A stretch of 64,000 nucleotides of DNA from Candidatus Fermentibacteraceae bacterium (lineage in GTDB: Bacteria > Fermentibacterota > Fermentibacteria > Fermentibacterales > JCC-6): positions 758 to 64,757 of the forward strand of contig JAWLEP010000013.1 of NCBI GenBank assembly GCA_041686025.1. Reading direction: 5' to 3'. Below the pieces are notes generated by a model. That model made no database searches, was not told where the DNA came from, and saw only the letters and a list, made by a program, of their open reading frames with translations. The position numbers and the translations under genes are program-made. Within the stretch, counting starts at the first letter, position 1; each line of letters opens with the position of its first letter. This document shows positions 5,982 to 48,124 of this stretch, piece by piece.

Positions 5982-6864
5982 GATGTCCGGAGGCAGAGCC
6001 CCCTCCAAGGTCCTGGAGTACCTGGTGGTGGCCTTCAAGGCCAGGCGGCTGCAGGTGTTCCGCAACGAGGGACCGGTGCCGGTGAGCCTGGGCAGCGTGG
6101 TGGTGGTATCCGTGGACCGGGGGGTGGACATGGGCAGGGTGCTGGCCAAGCACATCTCCCAGGAGGACGTGCCCCGGGAGCCCGAGGGGAAGCTGCTTCG
6201 GGAGGCCACGGAGGAGGACCTGCAGCGCCACCGCTCCAACACCGAGTTCGAGAGCGAGGTGATGGACTACTGCGCCCAGCGGGTGAAGGCCAGGAACCTC
6301 CAGATGAGGCTCACCGAGTGCGAGATACAGCTGGATCGCAACCGGATCAGGGTCTTCTTCACCGCCGACAGGAGAACCGACTTCCGGGGCCTGGTCCGGG
6401 ACATGGCCGCCCGTTTCAAGGCCCGCATAGAGATGCGCCAGATAGGGGTCCGCGATCACGCCAAGAGGGTGGGCGGCATGGGGGTGTGCGGAAGGAGGCT
6501 CTGCTGCTCCAGCTTCATGAACGGCTTCAGCTCCATCACCCTGAAGTCGGTGAGGGCCCAGAACCTCACCCCCAACCCGGCCAAGGTGTCGGGTCTGTGC
6601 AGCCGCCTGATGTGCTGCCTCGACTACGAGATCGAGTTCTATCGCAAGGCGGCGAAGACCTTTCCCCGCATAGGGGGCAAGGTCACAGTGGACGGAAAGA
6701 GGGCCGTGGTGAAGTCGGTCAGTATATTCTCCGACAAGGTCAAGGTCGGCTTCGAGGACGGCGACGACGAGTACATGGACATCCGGGAGTTCCACAGCCG
6801 CCGGGGAGGCGGCGGGAGCGGCGGAGGCAGGAAGCGCCGCCGAAAGCGAAAACGCAGAAAGTGA
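5974..6864 (+). CDS. ricT: PSP1 C-terminal domain protein (YaaT/RicT-like).
   Basis: PSP1-type sequence with a cysteine cluster (GVCGRRLCCSSF...CSRLMCCLDYE). It sits in the conserved holB-yaaT position and overlaps the holB stop by 8 nt. Confidence 0.75.
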   Translation: MAEMSGGRAPSKVLEYLVVAFKARRLQVFRNEGPVPVSLGSVVVVSVDRGVDMGRVLAKHISQEDVPREPEGKLLREATEEDLQRHRSNTEFESEVMDYCAQRVKARNLQMRLTECEIQLDRNRIRVFFTADRRTDFRGLVRDMAARFKARIEMRQIGVRDHAKRVGGMGVCGRRLCCSSFMNGFSSITLKSVRAQNLTPNPAKVSGLCSRLMCCLDYEIEFYRKAAKTFPRIGGKVTVDGKRAVVKSVSIFSDKVKVGFEDGDDEYMDIREFHSRRGGGGSGGGRKRRRKRKRRK

Positions 6865-6883
6865 AGGACGGGAGACGGACACC

Positions 6884-8917
6884 ATGCCCCGATACCTGGT
6901 AACCAGCGCCCTTCCGTACGCCAACGGACCACTGCACCTGGGTCACCTGGCTGGCGCATACCTGCCGGCGGACATATACGTGAGGTACCTGCGCAGCTGC
7001 GGCGAGGACGTGCTCTACATGTGCGGCACCGACGAGCATGGTGTCCCCATAACCATCACCGCCGAGAAGATGGGGCTGTCCCCCCAGGAGGTGGTGGACC
7101 GCTTTCACGGGGTCATAGAGGAGGACTTCGGCAACTTCGGCATCTCCTTCGACAACTTCTCCCGCACCACGTACTCCGAGCACCACAGGTTCGCGCAGGG
7201 AGTGTTCCTGGACCTCCTGGACAAGGGCCTGATAGTGCCCAGGAGCATGGAGCAGCTGTACTGCGAGAGCTGCGGCCGATTTCTCCCTGACCGTTACATC
7301 GACGGCACCTGCCCCAGGTGCGGGTCGGAGGAGGCCAGGGGCGACCAGTGCGAGAGATGCGGCACCTGGCTGGAGCCGCTGGAGCTCACCGACCCCCGCT
7401 GCAGCGTGTGCGGCGCGGCTCCCGTGGTCCGGGAGACCAGGCACTGGTTCCTGAGGCTGGACAGCTTCCAGGAGTGGCTTCAGCAGTGGCTGGACGGCCG
7501 CCAGGGGTGGCGCGAGGGCGTTCTGAGCTACTGCCGGGGCTGGCTTAGGGACGGCCTCCGCGAGAGGGCCATCACCCGGGACATAGACTGGGGGGTCCCC
7601 GTGCCCCTGGAGGAGGCGGAGGGCAAGGTGCTCTACGTATGGTTCGAGGCGCTGCTGGGCTACATCAGCAGCACCCGGGAGTACTTCCGCCGCCGGGGTG
7701 AGCCGGAGGGCTGGAAGCGGTACTGGAAGGACGACGAGACCAGGCTGGTCCACTTCATCGGCAAGGACAACATCGTCTTCCACGCGGTGATAGAGCCCTC
7801 CGTTCTGCACGGCCTGGGGGACTACGTCCTGCCCTGGAACGTTCCCGCCAACGAGTTTCTGAACATCTCCGGCCGCAAGCAGTCCACCAGTCGCGGTACG
7901 GCGGTGTGGATGAGGAGCTACCTGGAGAGCCTTCCCGCGGACCCCATGCGGTACGCCCTGGCCATCAACGCCCCCGAGCACCGTGACACGGACTTCTCGT
8001 GGGACGAGTTCCTGGCCCGCAACAACGAGCTGGCCGACGTCCTGGGCAACTTCGCCAACCGGACGCTGAAGTTCGCCCAGAGGAGGTTCGACGGAAGGGT
8101 GCCCGACGCGGAGTACGGCCCGGAGGAGCAGGCCCTGCTGGAGGAGGCCAGGGCCGCCGGGGAAGAGATCGGCGGCCTCATCGGCCGCTTCCGGCTCAAG
8201 GAAGCGTGCAGGCAGGCCATGGCTCTGGCCCGGAAGGGCAACGTCTACTTCGACCGGGCCAAGCCCTGGAAGACGGCCAAGTCCGACCCGGAGCGCTGCG
8301 CCGCCTCCATCGGCTGCTGCCTGCAGCTTCTGGACTCTCTGCGGGTGCTGTTCGAGCCCTTCCTTCCGTTCACCGCGGAGAAGCTGGGCGAGATGCTGGA
8401 CAGCCGGGAGCTTGTGTGGAGCAGCATCGGCGGCAGGAACCTCCCCGCGGGCGCTGCGCTGGGCGAGCCGGAGATACTGTTCGAGAAGCTGGAGCCGGGA
8501 TTCGAGGCCGACATAGTGCGGAGAGAGCGCGAAGACGGCAGTGAAGGGGGAAGCGAAGACGTGGAATCCCAGGACAAGGCCGGGGACGGGAACCTGCTGG
8601 ACATAGACACCTTTATGAGCGTGGACCTTCGGGTGGGGCTGGTCCGGGAGGTGGAGGACCATCCCGGGGCGGACCGGCTGTACATCATGAAGGTTGATAC
8701 CGGTGATCGAGTGCGTCAGATTGTCGCGGGACTCAAGCCCTACATGCCCCCCGAGGAGCTGCTGGGCAGCAGGGTTGTGGTAGTCCGCAACCTCCAGCCG
8801 GCCAGGCTCCGCGGCGAGGTGAGCGAAGGAATGATACTTGCTTCCGATGATGGAGAAGGGGGCGTCCGACTGGTGCGGGCCTCCGACAGCGCGTCCCCCG
8901 GCGACAGGGTGCGGTAG
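6884..8917 (+). CDS. metG: Methionine--tRNA ligase with C-terminal tRNA-binding (EMAP/Trbp111-like) domain.
   Basis: Class I HIGH motif (PYANGPLHLGHLAG), KMSKS-like KQSTS, and Zn knuckles CPRCGSEEARGDQCERCG...CSVCG. The C-terminus has an OB-fold tRNA-binding domain (MSVDLRVGLV...VVVVRNLQPARLRG). Confidence 0.95.
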   Translation: MPRYLVTSALPYANGPLHLGHLAGAYLPADIYVRYLRSCGEDVLYMCGTDEHGVPITITAEKMGLSPQEVVDRFHGVIEEDFGNFGISFDNFSRTTYSEHHRFAQGVFLDLLDKGLIVPRSMEQLYCESCGRFLPDRYIDGTCPRCGSEEARGDQCERCGTWLEPLELTDPRCSVCGAAPVVRETRHWFLRLDSFQEWLQQWLDGRQGWREGVLSYCRGWLRDGLRERAITRDIDWGVPVPLEEAEGKVLYVWFEALLGYISSTREYFRRRGEPEGWKRYWKDDETRLVHFIGKDNIVFHAVIEPSVLHGLGDYVLPWNVPANEFLNISGRKQSTSRGTAVWMRSYLESLPADPMRYALAINAPEHRDTDFSWDEFLARNNELADVLGNFANRTLKFAQRRFDGRVPDAEYGPEEQALLEEARAAGEEIGGLIGRFRLKEACRQAMALARKGNVYFDRAKPWKTAKSDPERCAASIGCCLQLLDSLRVLFEPFLPFTAEKLGEMLDSRELVWSSIGGRNLPAGAALGEPEILFEKLEPGFEADIVRREREDGSEGGSEDVESQDKAGDGNLLDIDTFMSVDLRVGLVREVEDHPGADRLYIMKVDTGDRVRQIVAGLKPYMPPEELLGSRVVVVRNLQPARLRGEVSEGMILASDDGEGGVRLVRASDSASPGDRVR

Positions 8918-19697: not shown

Positions 19698-19723
19698 CGG
19701 TGCCTGACGTACGTCAGGCACCG
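19698..19723. terminator. Perfect 26-nt palindrome (cggtgcctgacgt|acgtcaggcaccg) starting 1 nt after the stop codon. Possible intrinsic terminator or operator.
   Basis: 13+13 nt perfectly self-complementary and GC-rich, immediately 3' of the taa at 19695-19697. Confidence 0.4.
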
Positions 19724-19730
19724 ATCTAAC

Positions 19731-19813
19731 AGGGTCAGACGTCAACTAGTCAACTATTTTCGTGTGCGGCCGGCCGATTGTCGAAAATAGTTGACTAGTT
19801 GACGTCTGACCCT
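19731..19813. repeat. Perfect 32-bp inverted repeat with AT-rich arms and a 19-nt GC spacer. Candidate operator, structured RNA or MITE-like element.
   Basis: Left arm agggtcagacgtcaactagtcaactattttcg (19731-19762). Right arm 19782-19813 is its exact reverse complement. The spacer tgtgcggccggccgattgt contains the ggccggcc palindrome. Each arm contains the direct repeat gtcaact-a-gtcaact. Confidence 0.75.
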
Positions 19814-19908
19814 GATCGGGGGAACGCCCCGCCGGGGCATTGCCTATATTGCCCGCGCACATACGAGACTGGCTCGAGTCATAGAGAACCCCTTCGGGAG
19901 GAGCCCCG

Positions 19909-21252: not shown

Positions 21253-22190
21253 CGGGACTCAAAGCCGGCCTCCATTCTCAGCCGGATTTCGGGCGCGGCT
21301 GCGGGGCCGACGACGCTCAGCTCGCTGCCGCCGGTATCCAGGAGGTCCCACAGAGGTATCAGGTCGGTGGGGCAGTGGCCTATGCCCCGCAGGGAGTCCT
21401 CCCCCAGAAGCAGGGGGTCCACGGGCATTCCCGAAAGCGGCCCCTCCTCCACCAGGTTCCAGGCGTGGAAGACCAGGCTGTCGCCCCTGCGCACCAGGCC
21501 CCCCACCACTCCCAGCTCCAGCCTGCCGGCCAGCCGGGACCGAAGCTCGCGGGCCATGGACAGGCAGGGGCCGAACCCGTCGCCTCCGTCGGTTCGGGAA
21601 GCCGCAATGGCCTCTTCCAGCAGCCGTTGGAGGGTTACGCCGCCCACGCTGTCGGGCAGGGGCCTGAAGGTTCCAGGGGCCTGCTCCAGGTGCATCAGCA
21701 CCGTCAGCCTGCGGGACTCCCCGGCGGCCAGCGAGTCGATTTCGGCCCTCAGCACGTCTCCGCTGCGGACCATGGAGGCCTGCCCGATCACCAGGCTCTG
21801 GAACGGCCGATGGCTCCGGGGCAGAGGCATCGTCACCTCCAGGTCCCGCACCGGAAGCTCCCCCGCGTTCTCCACCGTGGCTTCCAGCACCAGCACGGTG
21901 TCCAGGGCGGCGGAGCCCCGGGAGCGGTCCCGCAGCCATCCCCGCAGGTCATCGCTGGGGCCGGAGGCCAGCAGCAGCCTGTACTGCCGGAGGGCGTCCT
22001 CGAACTCTCCCGCCAGCTCCAGTAGGCTTCCCAGGCGCACTCCGGCGTCGCCTCCCTCCATCCTGGCAGCGAGCTCGGCGAAGAGGAGGGCCCGCTCCGG
22101 GACCCGGGCCACCGAGACCAGGGAGCGCACTGAGTCCGAGGGAGAGATCACCGGGGCGGCCAGCAGCAGCGCCAGGAGCAGCGTCATCCC
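21249..22190 (-). CDS. Secreted transglutaminase-like (Cys-His-Asp) domain protein.
   Basis: Only the C-terminal ~313 aa of track ORF 21249..23066 are credible (start MTLLLALLLAAPVISPSD). It has a TGc-like core GPCLSMARELRSRLAGRLELGVVGG...LVFHAWNLVEEG. The stop overlaps aspS, and the start overlaps the lolE-like stop. Confidence 0.55.
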   Translation of the reverse strand, partial: GMTLLLALLLAAPVISPSDSVRSLVSVARVPERALLFAELAARMEGGDAGVRLGSLLELAGEFEDALRQYRLLLASGPSDDLRGWLRDRSRGSAALDTVLVLEATVENAGELPVRDLEVTMPLPRSHRPFQSLVIGQASMVRSGDVLRAEIDSLAAGESRRLTVLMHLEQAPGTFRPLPDSVGGVTLQRLLEEAIAASRTDGGDGFGPCLSMARELRSRLAGRLELGVVGGLVRRGDSLVFHAWNLVEEGPLSGMPVDPLLLGEDSLRGIGHCPTDLIPLWDLLDTGGSELSVVGPAAAPEIRLRMEAGFESR

Positions 22191-23407
22191 GAGAGGCCCC
22201 TCACGGGGTCCATCCCGGAGGCCCGCAGGGCCGGGAACGCCGCGGAGGCTGTGCTCAGGCCCACCGCCACAGCCGCCACAGCCGCCACGTTGATGGCGTC
22301 CACCTCCACCGGGATGTGCTGGTGGAACGAGTACACGTCGGGTAGCGTCACCAGCCCCGTGGAGCCCAGGACCCAGCATCCCGCCAGGCCCAGGGCCAGG
22401 CCGATGGCGGCGCCCGTTCCGCCCACCAGCATGCCCTCCCAGAGGAAGACCTTGGCCACCAGGCTCCTGGTGGCGCCCATGGCCTTGAGCATGGCTATGT
22501 CGGACCGCCTCTCGACTGCGGAGCGGGAGATGGTGCCCACGATGTTGAAGGTGGCCACCAGCGTTATCAGGGCTATGGCCAGGAAGGAGCCCAGCCTCTC
22601 CAGCTTCATGGAGGCCAGCAGGTCGGGGTTGCGCTCCCGCCAGCTGCTCAGGACGGCCCCGGGGGGAAGCAGATCCGATACCGCGGCGGCGGCCTGATCG
22701 GTGGTCACCCCCTCCGCCGGCCAGATGGATATGCCGCTGTAGCCCCCCTCGGGGGCCAGCATGCGGGAGGCCTCCTCCAGGGGCAGGTACGCGATCCTCT
22801 GGTCGTTCACCGGCAGCCCCGTCTCCACCGCTCCGGTGAGGACCGCCCGGCCCACAACCATGCCCCGGGGGGAGAAGAAGGCCTCGGGGGGGAAGAAAAG
22901 CAGCGTGTCTCCCGCGCAGTGCCGCAGCCGCTCGGCCAGATACAGCCCTGCTACGGTGCCGGGGAACCCGTCGGAGAGGCGGAGAGCGAGATCCCCGTAG
23001 ACCAGCTTCCCGGCCATTCCGGAGGCCGGAAACTCCGCCCCGGGGTCCACTCCGCGCACCAGGCATCCGGCGTCCAGACCCATTCCCGGGTGCCGGACAA
23101 TGGCCTCGCCCTCCAGGTAGGGAGATGCGGCGCCCACCTCATGCAGGGTTCGAATGCGCTCCACCGTCGGGGGGGGCACCAGGAACCGCGGGCCCTCGGC
23201 GGGGGTTGCGGTGAGAGGTGCATCGACTGTCTGGACGGACTGCCCTATGAAGCTCCCCAGGCCGGCGAGTACGCTGGTCACCACCAGAAGGGCGGCCACG
23301 CCCAGGGCTACGCCGGACACGCTGACCACCGTGGAGAAGGCCAGGCGCCGTCTCTCCGGATGGCGGCGGATGTAGCGCCAGGCCAGGTGCCAGGATAGAG
23401 CGCTCAT
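22184..23407 (-). CDS. ABC transporter permease, FtsX/LolE-MacB family (lipoprotein-release-like).
   Basis: True start is likely the internal MSALSWHLAWRYIRRHPERRRLAFSTVVSVSGVALGVAALLVV, which is the LolE/MacB-type N-terminus. It has a large periplasmic loop and 3 C-terminal TMs. The 80-aa N-terminal extension in the track ORF is probably spurious. Confidence 0.8.
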   Translation of the reverse strand: MSALSWHLAWRYIRRHPERRRLAFSTVVSVSGVALGVAALLVVTSVLAGLGSFIGQSVQTVDAPLTATPAEGPRFLVPPPTVERIRTLHEVGAASPYLEGEAIVRHPGMGLDAGCLVRGVDPGAEFPASGMAGKLVYGDLALRLSDGFPGTVAGLYLAERLRHCAGDTLLFFPPEAFFSPRGMVVGRAVLTGAVETGLPVNDQRIAYLPLEEASRMLAPEGGYSGISIWPAEGVTTDQAAAAVSDLLPPGAVLSSWRERNPDLLASMKLERLGSFLAIALITLVATFNIVGTISRSAVERRSDIAMLKAMGATRSLVAKVFLWEGMLVGGTGAAIGLALGLAGCWVLGSTGLVTLPDVYSFHQHIPVEVDAINVAAVAAVAVGLSTASAAFPALRASGMDPVRGLSG

Positions 23408-23538
23408 GGTCTCCCTTCGTGGAGGTGGTCGGGCTTTGGCGCCGGCCCAGGTGACAAATATGTTCAAAGGAACCTTCTGGAAAGGGAGGCCTTCCGCCCC
23501 CGTATCCAGCCTGCACCGCTCGGAAAGGACCGGGATCA

Positions 23539-26500
23539 ATGCTGCAAGCCATAGCGGTAGCGCTTCTGCTGGCATCGAATCCGGCGGAGCAGATGACCGG
23601 TCCATTCGAACGGGTGCGGACCCCGCGGGCCCCGGCGGTGGAATATACCCCATCGGGGGCCGGGATGTCCCTCAGCTTCCCGGCGCCCCGGGCCAGGGAG
23701 ACGGCCCACGGTCACATCGTCGAGTTTCCCGGCCTCCCCCTGCGGTCGGCAACCGGAGAGCCTCTTCTCCCCTACAGGCGCGTTGTCTTTCCCCTGCCCC
23801 CGCACGGGGAGCCCGAGGTGAGGCTGGAGGGGGCGCGGACCGCTGCCATGGCGCCTCCGGGAAGGCTGGCCATCACTCCCGCCCTCAGGGGGACGGGACT
23901 GGAGACGGTGGAGGACTACTCCATCCCGCTGCGGGAGGGGCCGGACTCCCGCATGGAGTACCGCGTGATGCATCTGGCCGGCTCCAGGGTTGCTGTGGTT
24001 GACGTGTATCCCTACCTCCCCTCGTCTCCGGGCTCGTACCTGACCTCGGCCCGGCTGTCCGTCACCTGGCCGGAGACTCCGGGATGGCGCAGGCTGGAGG
24101 AAGGGCCGCTGGCCGCCGTCTGTCCCCCCGGAGCCCTGTGGTGGCCGGGCCGGGGAGCGAAGGCGGAGAGCCCCTTCTGGGGCAGGCCCTGGGCCAGGAT
24201 GGAGATAGACCAGACCGGCGTCTACTGCCTGACAGGCGCGGAGCTGGAGGCAGCCGGCTGCCAGGTGACTGGGTCGCCGTCGTCCACCCTTCGCATGCTC
24301 ACCGGGGCAGGAGTGGAGTTCGACATCTTCGACAGGACCGAGGAGCAGCCGCCCCAGGAGGTTGCCGTCCGCGTTCTCGACGGCGGCGACGGCACCTTCG
24401 ACACCGCCGACTCGCTGCTGTTCTTCGCCAGGTCCCTGAACCGCTTCCTGCTCTCCGACGGCGGGACGCCCCAGGACGAGATCGCCCACGTGGGCCACGA
24501 GTACGATGACCGCAACGTCTACTGGCTGACCTGGGGAGGGCAGGAGGGCAGGACCATGGAGGAGGTGGGCGCCTCCCCCGACGGCTCCCCCGATTACGGC
24601 GACTCCTCGGTGCACCACCTCTGGATGGAGGAGGACTACGCCTTCAGCAACTACAACGGCTGGACCTGGTACCGCCTCTACCCCCGGCTGGCGCTCTACA
24701 TCTACCTGCAGACACCGGATGCCTCCGGGCCGGGCACCATCGACCTGTCCTTCGCGGTGCCCAGGGGAAACGCGCCCGTGGACGTGATCCTGGACGGCGA
24801 TACCCTGTTCAGCGGGACGATCCCGCCCTTCGGGAACCTCCAGCTGGACTCCGTCGACCTCGGGCCGGCACCCAGGCTGACGGTAAGGCCCGACACCGGC
24901 AGCTGGGAGGAGAACTACCTGGAGCACGTCTACGTACGCTATCCCAGGCAGCTCGCCTCCTGCGGAGGAAGACTGCTCTTCCCCCGGCTGGGCGACTCCG
25001 CCAGGAGGACGCTGGAGCTGGGGATGGCGGACCAGCCGCTACTGCCCCTGGACGTGAGCGACCCCCTCGACCCGCTGGTGCTCGACGGCGGCGCATGGTC
25101 CGACGGACGGCTGACCCTCTCGCACGACCTGGGGCCGGGCAGCGCCCTGTACCTGTGCAGGCCGGACGATCTGCTGAAGCCCGATTCGCTGTTTTCCGCG
25201 CAGCCGGGCCGGATAGTGGGGTCTCTGGAGCCCGTGGATGTGGTCCTCATAGCGGGCGGGGGCCTCCTACAGGCCTCCGAGCCGCTGCGGGCCCTCTACC
25301 AGCAGCGGGGCCGCAGCTGTCACCTGGTGAGCCTGCAGGAGGTTGCCGACGAGTTCGGCGCCGGAGTCATGCACCCGGGAGCCGTCAGGTCTTTCATCCG
25401 CCACATGCTGGACGTCTGGAGCGATCCGGTGGAGGAGGTGGTGTTCGTGGGGGACGGCCACTACGACGTGCTCAACCGAATCACCTCCAGCCCCTGTCCG
25501 TTCCCAGTCTGGTACTTCCACCAGTACTGGAACACGCTGGTCTGCAAGGACGACTTCTTCGCCCTCTGCCATGAGGGCCAGGAGGTCCCCGAGGTTCCGG
25601 TATCCCGGATACCGGCGGACGACCCCGCGCAGCTGGCCGGCATCATCTCCAAGCTGGCCGCCCGGGAGGAGTCGCTGCAGCCGGGCGAGTGGGCCTGCAG
25701 GGACCTGTTGATTGCGGACGATGAATGGGGCCAGTTCGGGGCCAACGAGAGCACGCACACCGAGCAGTGCGACATCATGGCCGACAGCATGCCCCCCAGG
25801 TACCGCAGGGAGAAGTTCTACCTGATCGAGTACCCCTGGCCGCCGGGTACAGACCCCGACCAGGGGGCGCACCCGGACAAGCCCGAGGCAAGGGAGGACC
25901 TGGTGGCCGAGATGAGCCAGGGCTGGCGGACGGCCTGGTACTTCGGCCACGGCTCCTACGGCCAGCTGGCCCAGGAGAAGCTGCTGCTATCCGCGGACGG
26001 CGTCCGGGTGACGGCGGGTCCGGCCTCGCCCGTGCTGCTTACGTTCTGCTGCAACTCCGGCGACTACTTCCTCACCGCCGACGACTGTCTGGCGGAGTAC
26101 TTCGTCCTGGCCCCCGAAGGGGGCTCCATCGCATCGGTGTCGCCCATAGGCGGGACGCTGGGTCCTCCGAACCTCTCGCTGGCCATGGCCATAGCCGAGA
26201 GCATAGAGGAGGGTGCACCGGCCGGTATCGGCTCCGCCCTCTGGGAGGCCAAGGTGGAGCTGTCCAACTCCGGCTCCGGAGGCAGGGCGTCCGACCCCAC
26301 CGGCAACAGCGCCGCCAGCCAGTACCACTGCCTGGGCGACGGGGGCGTCGTGGTTCCCGCGGCCTCCCATATGCCCGGGGGCATGGCCCTGGAGGGGGAT
26401 ACCCTGTTCCGGGGGAGGACCGCCAGGCTGGATCTGGGAGGCGGGGGAGCGTCCTCGCTGTTCGCCAGGCTTACCGAGAGCGGCTCGTACACCCAGTACA

Positions 26501-27363
26501 CGATGCTGGGCGGCACCACAATGACATACCTCCGCAACGGCGGCGCGTTCTACAACGGCAGCCTGGCCGGGGGCCAGGGCCCCATCTCCCTGGACGTGTT
26601 CGTGCCGGTCCAGGCGGACACCGGTCAGCTGGCCCGCTGCGGCGCCCTGGCGGTGGGTGGCCCCGAAGGGCTCTCTGCGGAGGCCCTGGAGTGGGTTTCT
26701 CTTCTGGATCGGGGCGGCTACGAGCCTGACTCCACTCCCCCGGAGGTCGATCTGTGGCTGGAGGGGGCCCGCGGCGAGGAAGAGCCGGCAGTGTGGGGCG
26801 GACAGGTGGTTCGCGCACACCTGGAGGACGAGAGCGGCATATGCGTTCTGGGAGGGGCCGCCGGCAGGTCCCTGCTGCTGAGCGTGGACGGTCAGGGCTT
26901 CGACGTGGGCGACCACTTCAGCTACCGGCAGGGAAGCTCCACCAGCGGCGACCTGGAGTACTCGCTTCCGGCCCTCTCGCTGGGCGAGCACAGGCTGATA
27001 CTGGCCGCCTGGGACGGAATGGCAAACGGCGTCCAGGACACGCTGGACTTCCAGGTGGTGGAGCCCCCCGAGAGACTCATCAGCCAGGTGCTGGTCTATC
27101 CCAATCCCGGGGACGGGGTGCGGGTCTTCAGCTTCCAGGCCACCTCGCCCGGCAGTGTTGAGGCTACTGTCTACACCGCCTCCGGAAGAGCCGTCTGGCA
27201 CGGAACCTCCGACTGCTCCATGGGCTACAACCAGCTGGTGTGGGACGGAAGGGACGATGACGGCGACCGTCTGGCGTGCGGGACCTACATCTACCGGCTT
27301 CGCATGGAGAGCGACCAGGGAGGAGCCGGCGAGAAGGTGGGCCGGCTGGTGGTGATCCGGTGA
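23539..27363 (+). CDS. Giant secreted peptidase C25 (gingipain/PorU-like, clan CD) family protein with T9SS C-terminal sorting domain. Paralog 1.
   Basis: Signal peptide and the clan-CD dyad context WYFGHGSYG (His-Gly) and LLTFCCNSGDYF (hydrophobic block plus Cys). The C-terminus QVLVYPNPGDGVRVFSFQ...GTYIYRL...VVIR is a Por_Secre_tail-like CTD. 1274 aa. Confidence 0.75.
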   Translation: MLQAIAVALLLASNPAEQMTGPFERVRTPRAPAVEYTPSGAGMSLSFPAPRARETAHGHIVEFPGLPLRSATGEPLLPYRRVVFPLPPHGEPEVRLEGARTAAMAPPGRLAITPALRGTGLETVEDYSIPLREGPDSRMEYRVMHLAGSRVAVVDVYPYLPSSPGSYLTSARLSVTWPETPGWRRLEEGPLAAVCPPGALWWPGRGAKAESPFWGRPWARMEIDQTGVYCLTGAELEAAGCQVTGSPSSTLRMLTGAGVEFDIFDRTEEQPPQEVAVRVLDGGDGTFDTADSLLFFARSLNRFLLSDGGTPQDEIAHVGHEYDDRNVYWLTWGGQEGRTMEEVGASPDGSPDYGDSSVHHLWMEEDYAFSNYNGWTWYRLYPRLALYIYLQTPDASGPGTIDLSFAVPRGNAPVDVILDGDTLFSGTIPPFGNLQLDSVDLGPAPRLTVRPDTGSWEENYLEHVYVRYPRQLASCGGRLLFPRLGDSARRTLELGMADQPLLPLDVSDPLDPLVLDGGAWSDGRLTLSHDLGPGSALYLCRPDDLLKPDSLFSAQPGRIVGSLEPVDVVLIAGGGLLQASEPLRALYQQRGRSCHLVSLQEVADEFGAGVMHPGAVRSFIRHMLDVWSDPVEEVVFVGDGHYDVLNRITSSPCPFPVWYFHQYWNTLVCKDDFFALCHEGQEVPEVPVSRIPADDPAQLAGIISKLAAREESLQPGEWACRDLLIADDEWGQFGANESTHTEQCDIMADSMPPRYRREKFYLIEYPWPPGTDPDQGAHPDKPEAREDLVAEMSQGWRTAWYFGHGSYGQLAQEKLLLSADGVRVTAGPASPVLLTFCCNSGDYFLTADDCLAEYFVLAPEGGSIASVSPIGGTLGPPNLSLAMAIAESIEEGAPAGIGSALWEAKVELSNSGSGGRASDPTGNSAASQYHCLGDGGVVVPAASHMPGGMALEGDTLFRGRTARLDLGGGGASSLFARLTESGSYTQYTMLGGTTMTYLRNGGAFYNGSLAGGQGPISLDVFVPVQADTGQLARCGALAVGGPEGLSAEALEWVSLLDRGGYEPDSTPPEVDLWLEGARGEEEPAVWGGQVVRAHLEDESGICVLGGAAGRSLLLSVDGQGFDVGDHFSYRQGSSTSGDLEYSLPALSLGEHRLILAAWDGMANGVQDTLDFQVVEPPERLISQVLVYPNPGDGVRVFSFQATSPGSVEATVYTASGRAVWHGTSDCSMGYNQLVWDGRDDDGDRLACGTYIYRLRMESDQGGAGEKVGRLVVIR

Positions 27364-27374
27364 CGGGGAGCTCC

Positions 27375-28109
27375 ATGGAGAGGGCGGCCGGACTTCTGGC
27401 GGACAGCCGCCGCCCGGTGGCCTTCACCGGCGCGGGCATGTCGAAGGAGAGCGGCATCCGCACCTTCCGGGGAGAGGACGGCTACTGGAGGCGGTACCGG
27501 GCGGAGGACCTGGCCTCGCTGGCGGCTGTACGCAGCGACCCCGAGACGGTGTGGCAGTGGTACGCGGAGAGGCTCCTGCACAACGCCGGGGTGGAGCCCC
27601 ACGCGGGCTACCATGCACTTGTGGAGGCCGAGCGGAGGATCGGATCGCTGCCGGTTGTCACCCAGAACGTGGACGGTCTGCACTCCCGTGCCGGCTCCTC
27701 GGAGGTCATCGAGCTGCACGGCAGCCTCCGGACCGCCTCCTGCCTCGATGAGCCCGGCAGGACCTTCGAGATTACGCCCCGGATGCTGGAGGACCTTCCG
27801 CCCCGGTGTCCCTGCGGCGCGGTGCTGCGGCCGGACGTGGTCCTCTTCGGCGAGGTCCTTCCGCAGGAGGAGATGAGCCGGGCGGCGGAGCTGGCCCGGA
27901 GCTGCGACCTGATGATGGTGGTGGGTACCTCCATGGTGGTCTACCCCGCCGCGGCGGTCCCCTATGCGGCCCTCCGCGCCGGGGCCGGGGTGATAGAGAT
28001 AAACCCCGAGCCCACCGCACTCACCGGAGAGCCGGGGGTGGTCAGCCTGAGGGGCCGCGCCGGAGAGCTGCTGCCCGAGCTGATGGAAACCGCCTGGAGG
28101 GATTCATGA
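27375..28109 (+). CDS. cobB: NAD-dependent protein deacylase, Sir2/CobB family (sirtuin).
   Basis: Motifs VAFTGAGMSKESGIRTFRG, VTQNVDGLHSRAGS, VIELHGSL, and CPCG...PDVVLFGE. The start is likely the internal ATG ~27375 of track ORF 27276..28109. Its stop overlaps the next start (ATGA). Confidence 0.85.
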   Translation: MERAAGLLADSRRPVAFTGAGMSKESGIRTFRGEDGYWRRYRAEDLASLAAVRSDPETVWQWYAERLLHNAGVEPHAGYHALVEAERRIGSLPVVTQNVDGLHSRAGSSEVIELHGSLRTASCLDEPGRTFEITPRMLEDLPPRCPCGAVLRPDVVLFGEVLPQEEMSRAAELARSCDLMMVVGTSMVVYPAAAVPYAALRAGAGVIEINPEPTALTGEPGVVSLRGRAGELLPELMETAWRDS

Positions 28110-31100
28110 GAGCTATGCTTGCAGCGACGGTGCTGGCGATGGCCGCGGTCTCCGCCGGGGCCATGGATGTTACAGTAAGCGTCCCCCTGGGCGCTCCCTC
28201 CACTCTGGAGGGGGAGATGGGCGTCTCCCCCTGGGCCCCGGGCCTGACCCTGGCCGGGGAGCCCGGCGAGGTCCTGCTTCCCGTGCGCCGGGTCTTCGTG
28301 CCGGTGCCCCCCGGCAGCAGCCCCTCAGTCGAGGTCCGTCCCCTGGACGTGGTGCGTACGCGGGTACCGGATGGAGGCTGGGCCAGGGCCCCCATGCTGG
28401 TGGGAAGCGGGCTGGAGACCACCGCCGTTCCGGCGCCCCCCCGCACGTCCTCCAGGGGCCGGGCTGAGCTGGTGGGGGTCAGCCATCTGTTGGGCGTGCC
28501 GGTGGCCGTGGTGGACGTATGCCCGCTCTCTTCGGGGTCCATGGCCTCCTGGGCGAGCCGGGTGGAGCTTACCGTATCCGTGCATGACCGGTTCCCCGCG
28601 CCACGCCAGCTCCCTCCGGCGACCCTGGACGGGGTGCTGGCGGGTGACGGTCCGGTATGGGGCGGCGCCAGCCTGCAATGGCCCGAGAGCCCCTTCTGGG
28701 GCCGGCCGTGGGCCAGGCTGGCCGTGGGTTCCACCGGCGGCTACAGGGTCACCGTCTCCGACCTGGAGGACGCCGGCTGCTCCGTCTCCGGGGCCCCGGT
28801 GGAGACCCTGCGGATGCTCACCGGGCCTGCGGTGATGTTCGGCACGGACCCCTCGGTCCTGCACACCCCCCAGGAGGTGGCCATCGAGGTGGAGGACCTG
28901 GACGGAAACGGGCTGTTCGACGGCTCCGACAACGTGCGCTTCCTGGCGAGGGGGATAGAGCGCTGGATTCCGGAGGCCGACAGCCTGCGCTGGATGCAGC
29001 ACCGCTACGCTACCCACAACGTCTACTGGCTGACGTGGGGGGGCGAGAGCGGGGAGAGGGTGTCCATCGAGGACGCCTCCCCGGACGGCTCGCCCGCCTA
29101 CGGGCTCCCGGTTCCCTCCTGGAGCTTCCGGGAGGAGGAGCTGCAGTACCAGGCGGACTACGAGACCAGAACCGGCTGGGTGTGGGAGGTGCTGGAGGAC
29201 GGGGAGACCTTCCAGGCCACCCTGGAGCTTCCCCGGGCGGGGAGCTGGGACCTGAAGGCGCGCGTCCTCTCGCTGGGCACCGGCACCAGCACCGTGCGGC
29301 TGTCGGTGAACGGCCAGCAGGTGGCCCAGGAGACCTGGACCAACAGGCAGGTCCGGTGGATAGTGGCCCCGGACCAGCCGCTGCAGCAGTCCAACCAGGT
29401 GGAGGTGACCTTCTCCATAGAGGGAGGGGTAGACCCCTACCTGGCGGTGGACCTGTTCAAGGTGCAGTCGGCGCTTCCGGGAGGGGCCACTGACAGGCCG
29501 CTCTTCCCGGGGCTGTCGGCCCAGGGCAGGTACACCTTCTCCATGGACCGGATTCCCCAGGGCGGCCGGGTCTACGACGTCACCGACTTCCTCGGCCCGG
29601 TGAGGCTGGACGGCGTCCAGCCGGCGGGGGAAGGTGTTTCCTTCTCCGCGACCGTGGGCGACAGCACCCGCCTGCTGGCCCTCGCGGAGGATGACTGGCG
29701 GCTTCCCGACTCCATTGGGCCGGCCTCTCCCGGGAGGATCCTGGGCACCCTGGAGGAGGGCGACCGTCTCTTCGTGGCTCCCCCCTCGCTCCTCGACGGC
29801 GTCTGGGGCCTTGCTCAGATCAGCGAGCAGGCCGGGCTCGTTCCGGCGGCTGTGACCACCAGGGAGGTCTACGACGAGTTCAACGCCGGGGTGGCCGACC
29901 CCGGGGCCATCCGCTCCGCCGTGCGCTGGGGCCAGGACGAGCTGTCTCCCGGCGTGGAGGGTCTGGTCCTGGTGGGCAACGGACACTGGGACGTGAGGAT
30001 GAACACCGTCTCCACTCCCAGCCTGGTCCCGCCCTACACCCTTCTGGGCAATCCCTCCTCCGGGGAGGGGGTATGCTCCGACGACTTCTACGTCATGACC
30101 CATTCCGGGGACGTTCTGCCGGAGATGCCGGTGGGCAGGATACCGGCCGAGGACGCCACCGATCTGGCCTCCATCACCGCCAAGAGCCTGGCGTACGCGG
30201 AGGGGGCCTCCGCGGGGGACTGGGTCAACAGAATGATGTTCCTGGCCGACGACGAGTGGGGCAACGGCATGAACCAGAGCGAGACGGTCCACACCATCGA
30301 CTGCGAGAAGCTGGCCGAGGACCACGCACCCCGCTACGTCGACCGGGAGAAGGTGTACCTGATCGAGTACCCGTGGCCCTCCGGGGGTGGTCACCCCGAG
30401 AAGGAGGAGGCCCGGGAGGACTTCATAATGGAGTACAGCCGGGGGAGCGCCTTCATGGCCTTCATCGGCCACGGCTCCCCCAACCAGATCACCAACGAGA
30501 AGGTCCTGCGGGGATCGGACGTACCCTCGCTTACCAACGGCGCCAGGCTGCCCCTCACCTACTGGGGCACCTGCAACGTGGGGCAGTTCGACATACCGGG
30601 GTCCACCTGCATAGGGGGCAGGCTGGTAGCCTCCCCGGAGGGCGGGGGCGTGGCATCGGTGGCCGCCACCAGGGGCACCTTCAGCGGCCCCAACTACTCC
30701 CTGGGGGCGGCCCTCATCGACTCCCTGTACGGCTCGGGCGCCGATTACTCCATGGGAACGGCCACCTGGCTGGCCAAGATAGGCAACGCCTCCTACACGG
30801 GATCGGTACGCTACTACGCCTACCTCGGGCACCCCGACCTGTGGCTGATGATGCCCGATACGGCTCCCCAGCTGTCCCTGGCGGCTCCCCAGCTGCTCAG
30901 CGGCCAGACCAACTCCCTCCAGGGCGACGGCTTCGCCGGGCAGGGGCTGGCGGCCATCGAGGTCCGCGAGTCCTCCGTGGACACCGTATACACCACACTC
31001 GGCGGCAACATCATAAACTGGCGCAAGCCGGGAGGCCCCGCCTACCGCGGCACCGTGGCCCTGGACGCCGGCGGCTTCGGCCTGGAGGCCTTCGTTCCCC

Positions 31101-31864
31101 TGCAGTCCAGGACCGGAGGCCTGGCCAGGGCCGCGGCCACCTATCTGGGCGCCCCCGTCACCTCCGCGGCGGCGCTGGACCCCCAGCCCCTGGCGGAGGG
31201 AGACCCGCCGGAGGACTACAGCGGGCCGGAGATACAGATGTGGGCCCGGGGATACCGGGGGGTGGAGGAACCCAGGGTCAGCGGCGAGGTCACCGTGGAG
31301 GCGGAGCTGTCCGACAGCAGCGGCATCTGCTTCCTGGGCGGTGACGGGCGGTCCATCACCCTGTTCCTGGACGGCCAGGGCATCGACGTCAGCCGGGAGT
31401 TCTCCTACCACCAGGGAAGCTCCACCTCGGGAAGCCTGGAGGCGGAGCTGGAGCAGCTCTCCGACGGATGGCACACCATCATCCTCCGCTGCTACGACGG
31501 CGTGGGAAACATGTCCATGGACACCCTGCGGCTGGAGTCCCTGCAGGGCGAGGACCTGGCCATACAGCAGGAGCTGGTCTATCCCAACCCGGGCAGCGGC
31601 AGGAGGTGCTTCAGCTTTCGGGTCACCGCAGACGCGTTCGTGCGCATATCCATCTATACGGTGGCCGGCAGGCGGATACGCACCCTTTCCTCCGACTGCT
31701 CTCAGGGTTACAATCAGATCGTATGGGACGGGCTGGACGCCGAGGGTGACAGGCCGGCCACCGGCAGCTACGTCTACCGCATCGAGGCGGTGGCCTCCGG
31801 GAGCAGCGTCTTCGACACGGAGGCCGAGGAGATGGGAGTTCTGGCCGTGGTGGAGGGTGGTTAG
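28106..31864 (+). CDS. Giant secreted peptidase C25 family protein with T9SS C-terminal sorting domain. Paralog 2.
   Basis: Start MRAMLAATVLAMAAVSAGA (internal to track ORF 27806..31864). Motifs FIGHGSPNQ and LTYWGTCNVGQFD. It is collinear with paralog 1 (shared blocks ...ESPFWGRPWAR..., ...NVYWLTWGG..., ...KVYLIEYPWP...). CTD is ELVYPNPGSGRRCFSFR...GSYVYRIE. Confidence 0.75.
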   Translation: MRAMLAATVLAMAAVSAGAMDVTVSVPLGAPSTLEGEMGVSPWAPGLTLAGEPGEVLLPVRRVFVPVPPGSSPSVEVRPLDVVRTRVPDGGWARAPMLVGSGLETTAVPAPPRTSSRGRAELVGVSHLLGVPVAVVDVCPLSSGSMASWASRVELTVSVHDRFPAPRQLPPATLDGVLAGDGPVWGGASLQWPESPFWGRPWARLAVGSTGGYRVTVSDLEDAGCSVSGAPVETLRMLTGPAVMFGTDPSVLHTPQEVAIEVEDLDGNGLFDGSDNVRFLARGIERWIPEADSLRWMQHRYATHNVYWLTWGGESGERVSIEDASPDGSPAYGLPVPSWSFREEELQYQADYETRTGWVWEVLEDGETFQATLELPRAGSWDLKARVLSLGTGTSTVRLSVNGQQVAQETWTNRQVRWIVAPDQPLQQSNQVEVTFSIEGGVDPYLAVDLFKVQSALPGGATDRPLFPGLSAQGRYTFSMDRIPQGGRVYDVTDFLGPVRLDGVQPAGEGVSFSATVGDSTRLLALAEDDWRLPDSIGPASPGRILGTLEEGDRLFVAPPSLLDGVWGLAQISEQAGLVPAAVTTREVYDEFNAGVADPGAIRSAVRWGQDELSPGVEGLVLVGNGHWDVRMNTVSTPSLVPPYTLLGNPSSGEGVCSDDFYVMTHSGDVLPEMPVGRIPAEDATDLASITAKSLAYAEGASAGDWVNRMMFLADDEWGNGMNQSETVHTIDCEKLAEDHAPRYVDREKVYLIEYPWPSGGGHPEKEEAREDFIMEYSRGSAFMAFIGHGSPNQITNEKVLRGSDVPSLTNGARLPLTYWGTCNVGQFDIPGSTCIGGRLVASPEGGGVASVAATRGTFSGPNYSLGAALIDSLYGSGADYSMGTATWLAKIGNASYTGSVRYYAYLGHPDLWLMMPDTAPQLSLAAPQLLSGQTNSLQGDGFAGQGLAAIEVRESSVDTVYTTLGGNIINWRKPGGPAYRGTVALDAGGFGLEAFVPLQSRTGGLARAAATYLGAPVTSAAALDPQPLAEGDPPEDYSGPEIQMWARGYRGVEEPRVSGEVTVEAELSDSSGICFLGGDGRSITLFLDGQGIDVSREFSYHQGSSTSGSLEAELEQLSDGWHTIILRCYDGVGNMSMDTLRLESLQGEDLAIQQELVYPNPGSGRRCFSFRVTADAFVRISIYTVAGRRIRTLSSDCSQGYNQIVWDGLDAEGDRPATGSYVYRIEAVASGSSVFDTEAEEMGVLAVVEGG

Positions 31865-33026
31865 CTTGGATCGGGAAGCCGGAGGACCCGCAGCCGCTGA
31901 CGGCAAGGTAGCCTGGCTCTGGAGCCAGGTGGAGGGGGCCCGGGAGAGCGGCGAGGTGGACGTGGCCCGGGAGAGCCTCTCCCGGCTGCTGTCCGACCCC
32001 AGGGTGAGGGGCACGGCCGACGAGGACCTGGCCATGCTGCACCTCTGCCAGCTGGAGCTGGAAGAGGGCCGGGTGGCCGAGGTAGCCAGGCGCATCACCG
32101 ACTTCTCCTGGAACGTCCGTCCCGGTCCGGCGGCGCTCCTGCTGGCGGCGGACGTCTACATGAAGCTGGACTGGTTCGCCCAGTCGCTGGAGTCCCTGGA
32201 CCGATACCTGCGGGAGATCCCCGACGACCTGGACGCCAGGCGCAAGAAGGGCCTGGTGCTGCTGATGCTGGACCGGGACGACGAGGCCGAGCGGGCCCTG
32301 CTCTCCGTGGCCCGCCGGGAGCGTTACCGGGTTCCGGCCACCCTGGCCTACCTGGCCATGCTGGAGGCCAAGAACGACCGGCTGGAGGAGAGCCTTCACC
32401 TGCTGATGCAGGCCAGGGACCTGGCCCCCTTCGACAGCCGCATAGAGCACACCCTTCTCCGGGTGGAGGCGCTGCGGGTGAGGCTTCGGCGCAAGGCCCT
32501 CTCCCACGACGGCCTTCCCCTGGAGGACGTGGTGGGGGGCATGGTCTCGGGGATGATGGAGCTGCACGGATACACCGAGAAGCAGGCCAGGTACGCCCGG
32601 GACGTATGGAACCACTTCTGCGCCCTGGAGACCCCCACCGGCCGCAAGCCCGCCATCTGGGCCGCCGCGCTGGAGTACGCCGTGACCCGCAGCGGCCCGC
32701 ATCTCTCCCAGGAGGAGCTGGCCGAGGAGTACGGCGTATCCTCCTCCCAGCTGCGCGAGCACTACAAGACCCTCACCTCCAAGGTGGACCTCCAGGCCTC
32801 CGGCGACCTGCTGGCCGAGGCCGCCAGCCAGGGCTCGGCCCTGTCCAGCCTGGTGCACCGCGAGGAGCTGGCCGACGTCCTGGCCGGGGCCGTCCGCAGG
32901 CTGTCCGACTTCGAGACCGAGGCCGAAGCGGTGGCCTGGATCTTCGACAGGATGGACCCGGCCGGCGAGGAGGAGCGCCGGGAGGTGGAGGATTTCCTCC
33001 GCTTCATCTGGAACCGCCGCCGCTAA
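31857..33026 (+). CDS. TPR-repeat protein (possible regulatory/HTH C-terminal region).
   Basis: Only the part after the C25 stop is credible, starting at GTG 31857 or TTG 31866. It has TPR-like helices (ADVYMKLDWFAQSLESLDRYL; ATLAYLAMLEAKNDRLEESLHLL) and LSQEELAEEYGVSSSQLREHY. Confidence 0.5.
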   Translation: MVSLDREAGGPAAADGKVAWLWSQVEGARESGEVDVARESLSRLLSDPRVRGTADEDLAMLHLCQLELEEGRVAEVARRITDFSWNVRPGPAALLLAADVYMKLDWFAQSLESLDRYLREIPDDLDARRKKGLVLLMLDRDDEAERALLSVARRERYRVPATLAYLAMLEAKNDRLEESLHLLMQARDLAPFDSRIEHTLLRVEALRVRLRRKALSHDGLPLEDVVGGMVSGMMELHGYTEKQARYARDVWNHFCALETPTGRKPAIWAAALEYAVTRSGPHLSQEELAEEYGVSSSQLREHYKTLTSKVDLQASGDLLAEAASQGSALSSLVHREELADVLAGAVRRLSDFETEAEAVAWIFDRMDPAGEEERREVEDFLRFIWNRRR

Positions 33027-33032
33027 CCAAGC

Positions 33033-33193
33033 GGGGACGGAGATTAAATCCACCAAAAGGAACCTGAAGGGACGGAGTTTAAGTTCATCAAGTACAGTGC
33101 GCCAAAAGCTTGGATTGTCGCAAGCCCTGAACTTGATGAACTTAATCTCCGTCCCCGGTTGACTTAATCTCCGTCCCCGGTTGACGTCCCCGG
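33033..33193. repeat. Cluster of four copies (both orientations) of the motif GGGGACGGAGATTAA / TTAATCTCCGTCCCC. It includes a 25-bp inverted repeat and a 22-bp tandem direct repeat.
   Basis: Copies at ~33033-33047 and 33069-33083 (forward), and 33141-33155 and 33163-33177 (reverse). IR arm 33069-33093 pairs with 33131-33155 (1 mismatch, 37-nt spacer). The unit cttaatctccgtccccggttga is tandemly duplicated at 33141-33162 and 33163-33184. It begins 6 nt after the TPR stop and ends ~145 nt upstream of ppdK. Confidence 0.7.
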
Positions 33194-33336
33194 GGCGTTT
33201 GTTGGCCGCGGCGGGGCAGTTGCATATATTCAATGCTCCCGAGGAGCCTCAGCCGTCCCCGCGGCCGGGGATCAGTCAACAAATCATGCGGTGCCATGGG
33301 GCGCCGGCATCCGTGCGGAGAGTGGTGGTTGAAGAG

Positions 33337-36108
<2,772 letters not shown>

Positions 36109-47474: not shown

Positions 47475-48124
47475 GGTACGCAGCGACCGCGGCCTGCCTG
47501 GCAGCGATCCTGCTGGCCGGCTGCAGCAGCAACCCCCTCTACTACAGGCTGGGGAGCGACTACTACCCCGTGTCTCCGGTGGGCACCATGTGGGTCTACT
47601 CCGTGGAGGGGGGAGGCAACGTGGTGGTGACCGTGGTAGACCAGGCGGAGGTGGCGCAGCGGTCGTGCTACCGCCTGCAGCGGGGGGCGGAGTACACCTA
47701 CTTCATCAACGACAAGGGCCGGCTGGAGCACTACGAGGACCACCGCGTGCTCTACAACGGCTACGAGATCGAGCTGTACAGCGGGTGGGTCCCCTACCTG
47801 GACTGGCCCCTGGCCGAGGGCGCGTCATGGACCGACTCCGTATCGGTCTCCACCTCCGAGCAGGGGGTGACCATCAACCACCGCTGGACCAGAACCACCA
47901 CGGTGGAGGGCCTGGAGACCGTCACCGTCCCCGCCGGGACCTGGAGCGACTGCTACCATCTCACCGAGACGGAGACGGAGATCAACTGGATTCAAACCGG
48001 CGGCTTCCAGCCCGAGACCACCACGGTGAGCCGTGAGATCTGGCTGGCCCCCGACGTAGGCATGGTGCGGAAGCAGACGGCCGACAGCACCGTGACCCTG
48101 AGCAGCTTCACTCCCGGGCAGTAG
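47468..48124 (+). CDS. Hypothetical lipoprotein.
   Basis: Lipobox AAILLAGCSS. 218 aa. The true start is the internal ATG ~47468 of track ORF 47042..48124. Confidence 0.5.
   Translation: MVRYAATAACLAAILLAGCSSNPLYYRLGSDYYPVSPVGTMWVYSVEGGGNVVVTVVDQAEVAQRSCYRLQRGAEYTYFINDKGRLEHYEDHRVLYNGYEIELYSGWVPYLDWPLAEGASWTDSVSVSTSEQGVTINHRWTRTTTVEGLETVTVPAGTWSDCYHLTETETEINWIQTGGFQPETTTVSREIWLAPDVGMVRKQTADSTVTLSSFTPGQ

Follow-up and report, generated by a model that had tools for sequence, protein, structure and literature searches.

One intergenic spacer in a 64,000-nucleotide stretch of DNA from Candidatus Fermentibacteraceae bacterium (contig JAWLEP010000013.1 of assembly GCA_041686025.1; the whole stretch is hereafter called the window) creates a puzzle. 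Between a gene for a tetratricopeptide repeat (TPR) protein and ppdK, the gene for pyruvate phosphate dikinase that precedes a REC-PAS-GAF-GGDEF gene, lies an array of short motifs repeated in both orientations: Does this array control the genes downstream, or is it a resident of the spacer with origins elsewhere? The original prediction, made from the letters of the DNA, had left room for both answers, proposing either an array of operator sites or a small element of mobile or repeat character. The explanation that we favor, and consider likely, is that window positions 33028-33196 hold clustered copies of a non-coding, dispersed repeat of the same kind as repetitive extragenic palindromes (REPs) and their hairpin doublets (REPINs), resembling the terminal inverted repeats ('TIR repeats') associated with the tyrosine transposase genes called TIRYTs, and maintained by a Y1 transposase. 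The repeat appears to be an ordinary selfish or co-opted one, not an operator of ppdK, and to be tied to a single domesticated tyrosine transposase.

Four units headed by GGGGACGGAG fill this segment, forming nested inverted repeats together with an exact 22-nt tandem stutter. Motif search and repeat finder recovered the array of four motif copies, with its inverted repeat and 22-bp tandem duplication, that had first drawn attention to the spacer. Its 15-mers do occur in both orientations, but only three are exact copies of GGGGACGGAGATTAA (33033-33047 on the plus strand, 33142-33156 and 33164-33178 on the minus strand), the fourth, AGGGACGGAGTTTAA at 33068-33082 on the plus strand, having two mismatches. 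A dinucleotide-preserving null gives 0.07 matches of the 15-mer expected by chance in the 64-kb window, and the observed number was reached in none of 100 shuffles; the sole further near-match in the window, at 47971 with two mismatches, looks like chance. The inner inverted repeat (33069-33100 with 33124-33155) is 32 nt long and 91% complementary, and its core is the 25-bp inverted repeat with one mismatch and a 37-nt spacer noticed originally. A second, outer inverted repeat (33028-33054 with 33157-33183; 27 nt, 89%) turns the array as a whole into a nested palindrome with its GGGG heads facing outward. The interval first given, 33033-33193, located the array correctly and fell short of its real extent, which runs from 33028 to about 33196, a stub (ACGTCCCCGGGGC) coming after the second 22-mer of the exact tandem pair (33140-33161 and 33162-33183).

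Read from left to right, the array begins with an outer unit on the plus strand, CAAGCGGGGACGGAGATTAAATCCACCAAAAGGAA (33028-33062), which is matched by nhmmer, has a diverged tail and pairs with 33157-33183 in the outer inverted repeat. It continues with the inner-left unit, (A)GGGACGGAGTTTAAGTTCATCAAGTACAGTGC (33063-33100, plus strand), which inverted-repeat search and unit profile both identify and which constitutes the 5' arm of a central hairpin. The loop of this hairpin (33101-33123) is homologous to the loops found at three loci of relatives (L117, L124 and L145; loci fetched from other genomes and contigs are cited here by such numbers), and its 3' arm is the complete inner-right unit (33124-33161, minus strand), the best match to the family consensus (E = 6.6e-10). 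Then follow, both on the minus strand, a truncated unit detected by the repeat finder, which is the second 22-nt tandem copy ACTTAATCTCCGTCCCCGGTTG broken after TTAAG (TTAAG/T; 33162-33183), and, as a terminal stutter, a stub from one more unit head (GCCCCGGGGACGT in reverse complement; 33184-33196). The element folds with an energy of about -103 kcal/mol on either strand (z = -9 to -10) and has a G+C content of 50%, compared with 67% for the window. Units in both orientations and at irregular spacing agree with the earlier judgment that this is not a CRISPR array.

The suggestion of a small mobile or repeat element has been borne out by a dispersed intergenic repeat in relatives, by assembly breaks and by a link with a Y1 transposase gene. 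As deduced from the profile consensus, the repeating unit is not the 15-mer but a sequence of 35-44 nt: the consensus caaccGGGGACGGAGTTTAAGTTCATCAAGTTcag covers about 35 nt, and many solo copies run some 10 bases further (nTTTGGCnGTTTAc) for a total of 44 nt. A search with the unit profile in nhmmer found 58 units in 28 intergenic clusters over 326 kb of related Fermentibacterota contigs, and only one cluster within the window. None of the 58 units lies inside a long open reading frame (ORF), by a crude ORF call, and two overlap the last codons of a gene. Among metagenome contigs, an exact-pattern scan with a degenerate 21-mer matched 23 contigs, 13 of which come from a single metagenome; six contigs of low GC content (L118, L125, L128, L130, L134 and L137) have no GGGG head and were taken as chance. 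Among species-representative genomes, the 16-mer CGGGGACGGAGATTAA gave at least 115 single matches, and almost all of those listed are due to chance or coding DNA, namely a conserved gene of LTGTEIKSIR type in Streptococcus and others and an orthologous gene of Nostoc. The only true relative among the matches listed is L074, which has three units with similarity extending well past the seed. An odd match in Roseateles (L028, 3756-3771), about 80 nt downstream of an ordinary gene for a REP-associated tyrosine transposase (RAYT), was judged to be probably a coincidence because that RAYT gene has its own REPs of GGGTCAGAGTCA type. Plasmid and phage collections, searched with blastn, contained no match to the unit, nor did viral contigs.

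The units of this family are arranged as solos, inverted hairpin doublets and nested 2+2 clusters. The layout of the window (++--) is found also in L117, L124, L133 and L145, and variants of it (++-, +---, +++-) in L126, L127, L146, L129 and L139. Across eight copies, the central hairpin comprises 29 pairs, with 97.4% of the cells paired and compensatory double changes in three pairs. An extra bulged G is present in one arm of six of these eight hairpins (GGAGTTGTAAG vs CTTAAACTCC); the hairpin of the window has a T/T mismatch adjoining the position of the bulged G of its relatives, and the loops vary between subfamilies. When tested for a fold of their own, solo units showed none that was consistent. 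Cluster edges often bear truncated tandem copies of the unit head, to which the 22-nt duplication of the window, with its break after TTAAG, corresponds: L145 has an analogous stutter of 23 nt on the other side, and shorter edge stutters occur in L119, L121, L126, L127, L129, L133, L146 and L149. A second subfamily shares the common head and has a different tail (GGGGACGGAGTACAACTTGTACAACTTG), as seen in L144 (7230-7260 and 9910-9940), L149 (minus strand, ~5080-5110) and L150 (minus strand, ~3385-3415). In some genomes it is found side by side with the main subfamily, the two tail variants being TTTAAGTTCATCAAGTT and TACAACTTGTACAACTTG.

What, then, could maintain such a family? A candidate is encoded in L074, where a 325-aa ORF (6563-7540) matches the Pfam family Y1_Tnp (E = 5.7e-11) and, weakly, Bac_DnaA_C (E = 0.0047), with a unit lying 12 nt past its stop. 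Its HUH motif, H60-F61-H62, and its Y---NP signature (Y119, N123 and P124) are invariant among 22 homologs. The best match of the AlphaFold model (pLDDT 85) in the PDB is 4er8, the E. coli TnpAREP with a REP hairpin (E = 6e-6), followed by the transposases of ISDra2 and IS608, and the C-terminus of the model superposes on DnaA DNA-binding domains with a TM score of 0.71. Similarly, a profile of the Y1 family searched against the PDB retrieves DnaA domain IV at 1.7e-5 and, weakly, TnpAREP.

Orthologs of this Y1 gene, sharing 57-100% identity (e.g., 82, 77, 66 and 57%), are syntenic in six contigs within a common neighborhood of rpsF operon, DUF1846, Y1 and Peptidase_C25. The DUF1846-Y1 pair is bracketed in every ortholog by inverted units with heads outward, one of which abuts or overlaps the Y1 stop; in L142 (10990-11019) and L143 (4850-4879) the TGA stop of the Y1 gene falls inside the unit. 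Solo units have their sequence in common with the 3' flank of Y1 over some 42 nt, as far as the stop codon of that gene. In L144, which has the most distant ortholog, the alternative tail TACAACTTGTACAACTTG is found on the two bracketing units alike, the same as in the second subfamily of L149 and L150, implying that the two units were replaced in concert, without independent drift. The spacer between DUF1846 and Y1 contains no unit, only a promoter-like ACTTGAA-N-TACAAT. This site lies 8 nt before the Y1 ATG (L074, 6481-6562, with equivalent spacers in L140 and L142), a position pointing to a transcript with no leader or a very short one.

The units keep close to gene ends. Measuring from the last base of the stop codon to GGGACGG, and considering ORFs of at least 200 codons, we found the GGGG end 2-11 nt past an ORF stop at 11 of 29 outer unit ends, and at most 34 nt past it at 15 of the 29. 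Clusters in L124, L129 and L133 lie between convergent genes, with both heads beside a stop. The exact arrangement stop codon + CG + GGGACGGAG, with the head 2 nt past the stop, recurs at no fewer than six independent loci, and stop + c(c)GTCAACCG + GGGACGGAG at many others; a head 7-11 nt past the stop is likewise seen at many loci. Genes followed by units in relatives include a DsbD_2/TauE-like gene, an SNF-family gene and a Peptidase_C25 gene. The solo unit after the DsbD_2/TauE-like gene is at the orthologous site in five genomes, where 82% of it is conserved; the figures are 49% for the remainder of that spacer and 85% for the coding sequence alongside. An attempt to find a filled/empty pair at this locus gave no empty site, as each of the five relatives had the unit.

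Such a position is where REP-type elements usually live and is out of keeping with an operator in front of ppdK, but it also lends itself to a different explanation. The units could be RNA elements selected by the host at gene 3' ends, where their G-rich head and hairpin, when transcribed right behind the stop codon, would protect the 3' end of the mRNA, insulate neighboring genes or modulate the termination of translation, the transposase link being historical or incidental. E. coli REPs within about 15 nt of stop codons have been reported to have such effects on mRNA and translation. Besides the spacing of the heads from stop codons and the conservation of the orthologous solo unit, this explanation has in its favor the GGAG contained in the head and the very stable folding of clusters as RNA. 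Both strands, however, fold equally well, so that RNA is not favored over DNA, and solo units do not share a consistent fold. Terminator scanning of the locus revealed no terminator-like site and no T-tract in the element. A permissive scan of the locus with Rfam 15 produced only sub-threshold matches to hairpins of eukaryotic microRNA type, and no Rfam family matched anywhere in the window at gathering thresholds; tRNA and tmRNA genes, looked for in the whole window, were not found either. Moreover, clusters are freely restructured among close relatives and missing from a syntenic one, as detailed below, and an RNA role would account for the persistence of copies, not for their spread. Although not exclusive of a repeat maintained by a Y1 transposase, a host-selected RNA element therefore seems to us unlikely as the primary explanation.

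For the Y1-maintained repeat, the same position raises a subsidiary issue. It is conceivable, if somewhat doubtful, that units are placed or kept at gene ends with single-nucleotide precision, in one of the two arrangements of stop, linker and GGGACGGAG described above. One possibility is that the Y1 enzyme, bearing its DnaA domain, inserts beside a short target that overlaps stop codons. Another is that the G-rich, GGAG-containing head serves the host after the stop, in translation termination or in the fate of the mRNA 3' end; such a function would leave a solo unit conserved like coding DNA while its spacer becomes saturated. Target choice, survival of harmless insertions and an RNA-level role are all possible reasons for the precision, and the coding-like conservation of solos may reflect either host function or homogenization.

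How does the cluster behave at the ppdK locus itself? In L117, which has 93.5% identity with the window across 12.6 kb, it occupies the same place and its outer units are complete. It follows directly past the TPR stop also in L145 (TPR protein 93% identical; same genome as L074), L146 (86%) and L148 (89%), with an arrangement of units that differs in each of these four relatives. In L117 and L145 the inner hairpin is inverted relative to its flanks when compared with the window, and the loop of the window aligns with that of L117 only when the flanks are in opposite orientation. At L148 (11141-11170) the TPR gene ends inside the first unit, as ...aaccgccgGGGACGGAGcTAG, encoding 388 aa vs 386 aa. 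The more distant L147 (70% amino acid identity, same gene order) has a TPR-ppdK spacer of 125 nt with no unit. Comparison of ppdK upstream regions in relatives, which had been proposed as a check, thus found the cluster in four of them and not in this fifth. Variable arrangement in the four and absence from L147 indicate that the cluster is old in the sub-clade, structurally unstable and dispensable for the organization of the operon. Assemblies also tend to break here: A metagenome-assembled genome contig (L001, GCA_046483415.1) that encodes an identical PpdK and matches the window at 99.98% identity for 12.9 kb begins right behind the array, at position 33207 of the window, the contig of L148 ends inside its cluster (11246), and those of L126, L127 and L139 start at or inside unit clusters. 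Breaks of independent assemblies at or inside clusters are consistent with a multi-copy repeat.

These comparisons bear heavily on the operator array of the original prediction, in which the four copies would be transcription factor sites controlling the ppdK-GGDEF operon. It is true that several sites in both orientations crowd into 160 bp, that a promoter-like -35 hexamer follows some 20 bp downstream of them, and that the associated Y1 protein has, according to its model, a DnaA-like domain for duplex DNA which might bind the units. Yet the same units and 2+2 clusters stand at the 3' ends of unrelated genes and even between convergent genes. The motif is confined to this one site in the window, but in relatives the anticipated enrichment upstream of central-carbon genes is not seen, units following unrelated genes instead. 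The promoter-like site TTGGCC-17-TATATT (33202-33230, plus strand) stands downstream of the cluster and outside the repeat, and ppdK transcription is predicted to start just past its end at 33230. L117 keeps this site, and the TATATT hexamer alone is seen again in L145 and L146 as well as in L147, which retains both the hexamer and the TPR-ppdK-GGDEF order without any unit. Unit number and arrangement also vary among close relatives. The operator explanation is already largely refuted, and we consider it very improbable.

Equally improbable is a miniature inverted-repeat transposable element (MITE) with GGGG-headed terminal inverted repeats, for example a miniature of the Tn3 family, moved in trans by a DDE transposase encoded elsewhere. 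Inverted units with GGGG at their outer ends, a size of 150-190 bp and dispersed copies would suit such an element. Against it, no direct target-site duplication was seen at the borders of any cluster, where the matching flanks are inverted (CAACC...GGTTG), and solos and head-to-tail runs are common. The plasmid and phage collections that gave no match count against it too. Only Y1, and no DDE transposase, turned up beside units, in fetched loci that were not screened for DDE genes. The tetranucleotide TAAG is at unit positions 13-16, as opposed to positions 35-38 in the inverted repeats of Tn3. Two further identities were rejected: an integron attC site, whose consensus RYYYAAC/GTTRRRY does not fit the ends GTCAAC/GTTGAC and which would sit here among housekeeping genes, and a bacterial selenocysteine insertion sequence, dropped because all three stop codons occur beside units.

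The TPR gene and ppdK, on either side of the array, are both on the plus strand. The TPR gene (31866-33026) encodes 386 aa by homology, as do its homologs P0121 and P0122, starting with TTG at 31866, preceded by GGAGGGTGG, and ending with TAA; named homologs of its product belong to Candidatus Aegiribacteria, Fermentibacteria and Sabulitectum, which places the organism in Fermentibacterota. The first GGGG of the array comes 6 nt past its stop, and the array ends about 140 nt before ppdK (33337-36108, ATG at 33337), whose stop is followed after 11 nt by the REC-PAS-GAF-GGDEF gene (starting at 36120), in agreement with the distances reported earlier. Upstream of the TPR gene (~22000-31900) lie two very large paralogous genes of Peptidase_C25 type, with internal direct repeats at a spacing of 4483 nt; in relatives, a SIR2 gene stands between the two. 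Farther upstream, at 19730-19814, the window has a perfect 33-nt inverted repeat, CAGGGTCAGACGTCAACTAGTCAACTATTTTCG and its complement with a 19-nt spacer. The stop of a gene (19697) and a small GC hairpin (19700-19725) precede it, and a promoter-like CTATATT and the gene at 19909 follow it. This repeat holds GTCAAC twice, the hexamer that borders also many GGGGACGG units, and no copies of it were found among 148 fetched loci.

Returning to the repeat maintained by a Y1 transposase, its workings may be pictured as follows. With two units pointing right and two left, the inner pair forms an imperfect hairpin of about 30 bp that the outer pair extends, and the 22-nt duplication is a truncated extra unit, of the stutter type recurring at cluster edges in relatives. 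The units would be recognized by the apparently single-copy, vertically inherited Y1 (HUH) transposase, with its TnpAREP-like core and DnaA-domain-IV-like tail, either as a hairpin of two inverted units in single-stranded DNA or through binding of the duplex unit tail by the helix-turn-helix domain, or both. We infer that this protein catalyzes the mobilization of units: By cutting and rejoining single strands without target duplications, it would spread, nest, flip and homogenize copies, stutters arising in the process. Copies would survive, or be targeted, immediately past stop codons. The cluster of the window would then be an old resident of the TPR-ppdK spacer that is under restructuring, belonging to the 3' end of the TPR gene and remaining passive between this gene and the ppdK promoter, with any effects as a 3' RNA hairpin or in gene insulation being secondary.

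Several observations weigh against this explanation and temper our confidence in it. The unit consensus is not self-complementary and has neither the GTAG nor the CGTC tag of classical REPs, and its head GGGGACGG fits the motif GGGGWSAS of TIR repeats at seven of eight positions, with G for A at position 7. The Y1 protein scores 57.6 bits with the NCBIfam model REP_Tyr_transpos, below the cut-off of 80. No Y1 gene is present in the 64-kb window, and both the multi-copy status of the repeat and its Y1 link rest on relatives of at most 93.5% DNA identity, in addition to the contig break. A unit abuts Y1 on the 3' side only, the 5' unit lying beyond the passenger gene DUF1846; given that units are common in gene-end spacers, some of the Y1 adjacency could be coincidence. 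Mobility was not seen directly, as no filled/empty pair at high identity was found, and the coding-level conservation of the solo unit could equally reflect a host function.

For the annotation of the window, these results remove a tempting false lead, there being no evidence of an operator for ppdK or cyclic di-GMP functions, and the repeat explains why assemblies of this organism break at the locus. The family itself, an addition to a known kind, holds modest interest; what deserves further work in it is its precision at stop codons and the transposase with the DnaA tail. Y1 transposases with such a tail (RAYT group 1 or subclass 2.1, see below) are widespread and their DNA partners poorly defined. 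The present clade of Fermentibacterota offers a well-defined unit, bulged hairpin doublets and two tail variants with concerted replacement at the transposase locus, hence a usable system for binding and cleavage assays as well as for the question of why units hug stop codons. Should the precision at stop codons prove true, these enzymes would gain a clear cognate repeat and a testable activity.

Among known systems, the closest likeness is to the RAYT-like genes that are flanked by long terminal inverted repeats instead of REPs, described as TIRYTs or TIRtrons by Di Nocera et al. (2013; PMC3733652). According to their account of these elements, many TIRs share the motif GGGGWSAS, and some belong to dispersed families of moderate abundance, whose members occur as solos, dimers and clusters. 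In the classification of Quentin et al. (2018; PMC6006769), 20 of 26 TIRYTs are placed in Y1 subclass 2.1, marked by C-terminal Bac_DnaA_C or helix-turn-helix domains; this subclass is equivalent to RAYT group 1 of Bertels et al. (2017; PMC5581495). The Fermentibacterota system shares with TIRYTs a Y1 HUH transposase homologous to TnpAREP with a C-terminal, Bac_DnaA_C-like helix-turn-helix. It shares also the dispersal of the repeats near the gene as solos, dimers and clusters of units that are not classical stem-loops. Inverted repeats with a GGGG head (GGGGACGG, one position away from GGGGWSAS) bracket the gene together with its neighbor, in partial likeness to the TIRs. It differs from them in the extra gene, DUF1846, inside the bracket, where only the 3' unit abuts Y1, and in its host, Fermentibacterota not being among the taxa named in the relevant sections of these papers; those sections do not report a tight adjacency to stop codons either, such as we see here. 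Furthermore, doublets of the present family fold into long hairpins whose bulge is conserved, whereas Quentin et al. (PMC6006769) note that their survey revealed nothing REP-like in structure close to subclass 2.1 genes.

With the REP/REPIN-RAYT systems and the bacterial interspersed mosaic elements of E. coli the family has in common short, multi-copy extragenic repeats that lie mostly downstream of genes, inverted hairpin doublets, clusters of alternating orientation and two unit subtypes that occur as heterodimers. Like them, it persists at orthologous sites and breaks assemblies, and its associated Y1 transposase gene, syntenic in relatives, is probably single-copy and vertically inherited. 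In contrast to REPs, its unit is no palindrome, has no GTAG or CGTC tag and is longer (35-44 nt), and its transposase has the extra DnaA-like domain and falls short of the NCBIfam cut-off for RAYTs. IS200/IS605 elements such as IS608 and ISDra2 are similar in the HUH fold of their Y1 enzyme and probably in the recognition of single-strand hairpins and the lack of target duplications. They are autonomous and multi-copy, with distinct left and right ends in direct orientation and no terminal inverted repeats, whereas in the present case a syntenic and seemingly single gene is accompanied by dispersal of the short repeats alone. The family fails the definition of a classical REP because its unit is not a tagged palindrome; we regard it as operating in the manner of a REPIN-RAYT system and as probably belonging to the TIRYT-associated repeats.

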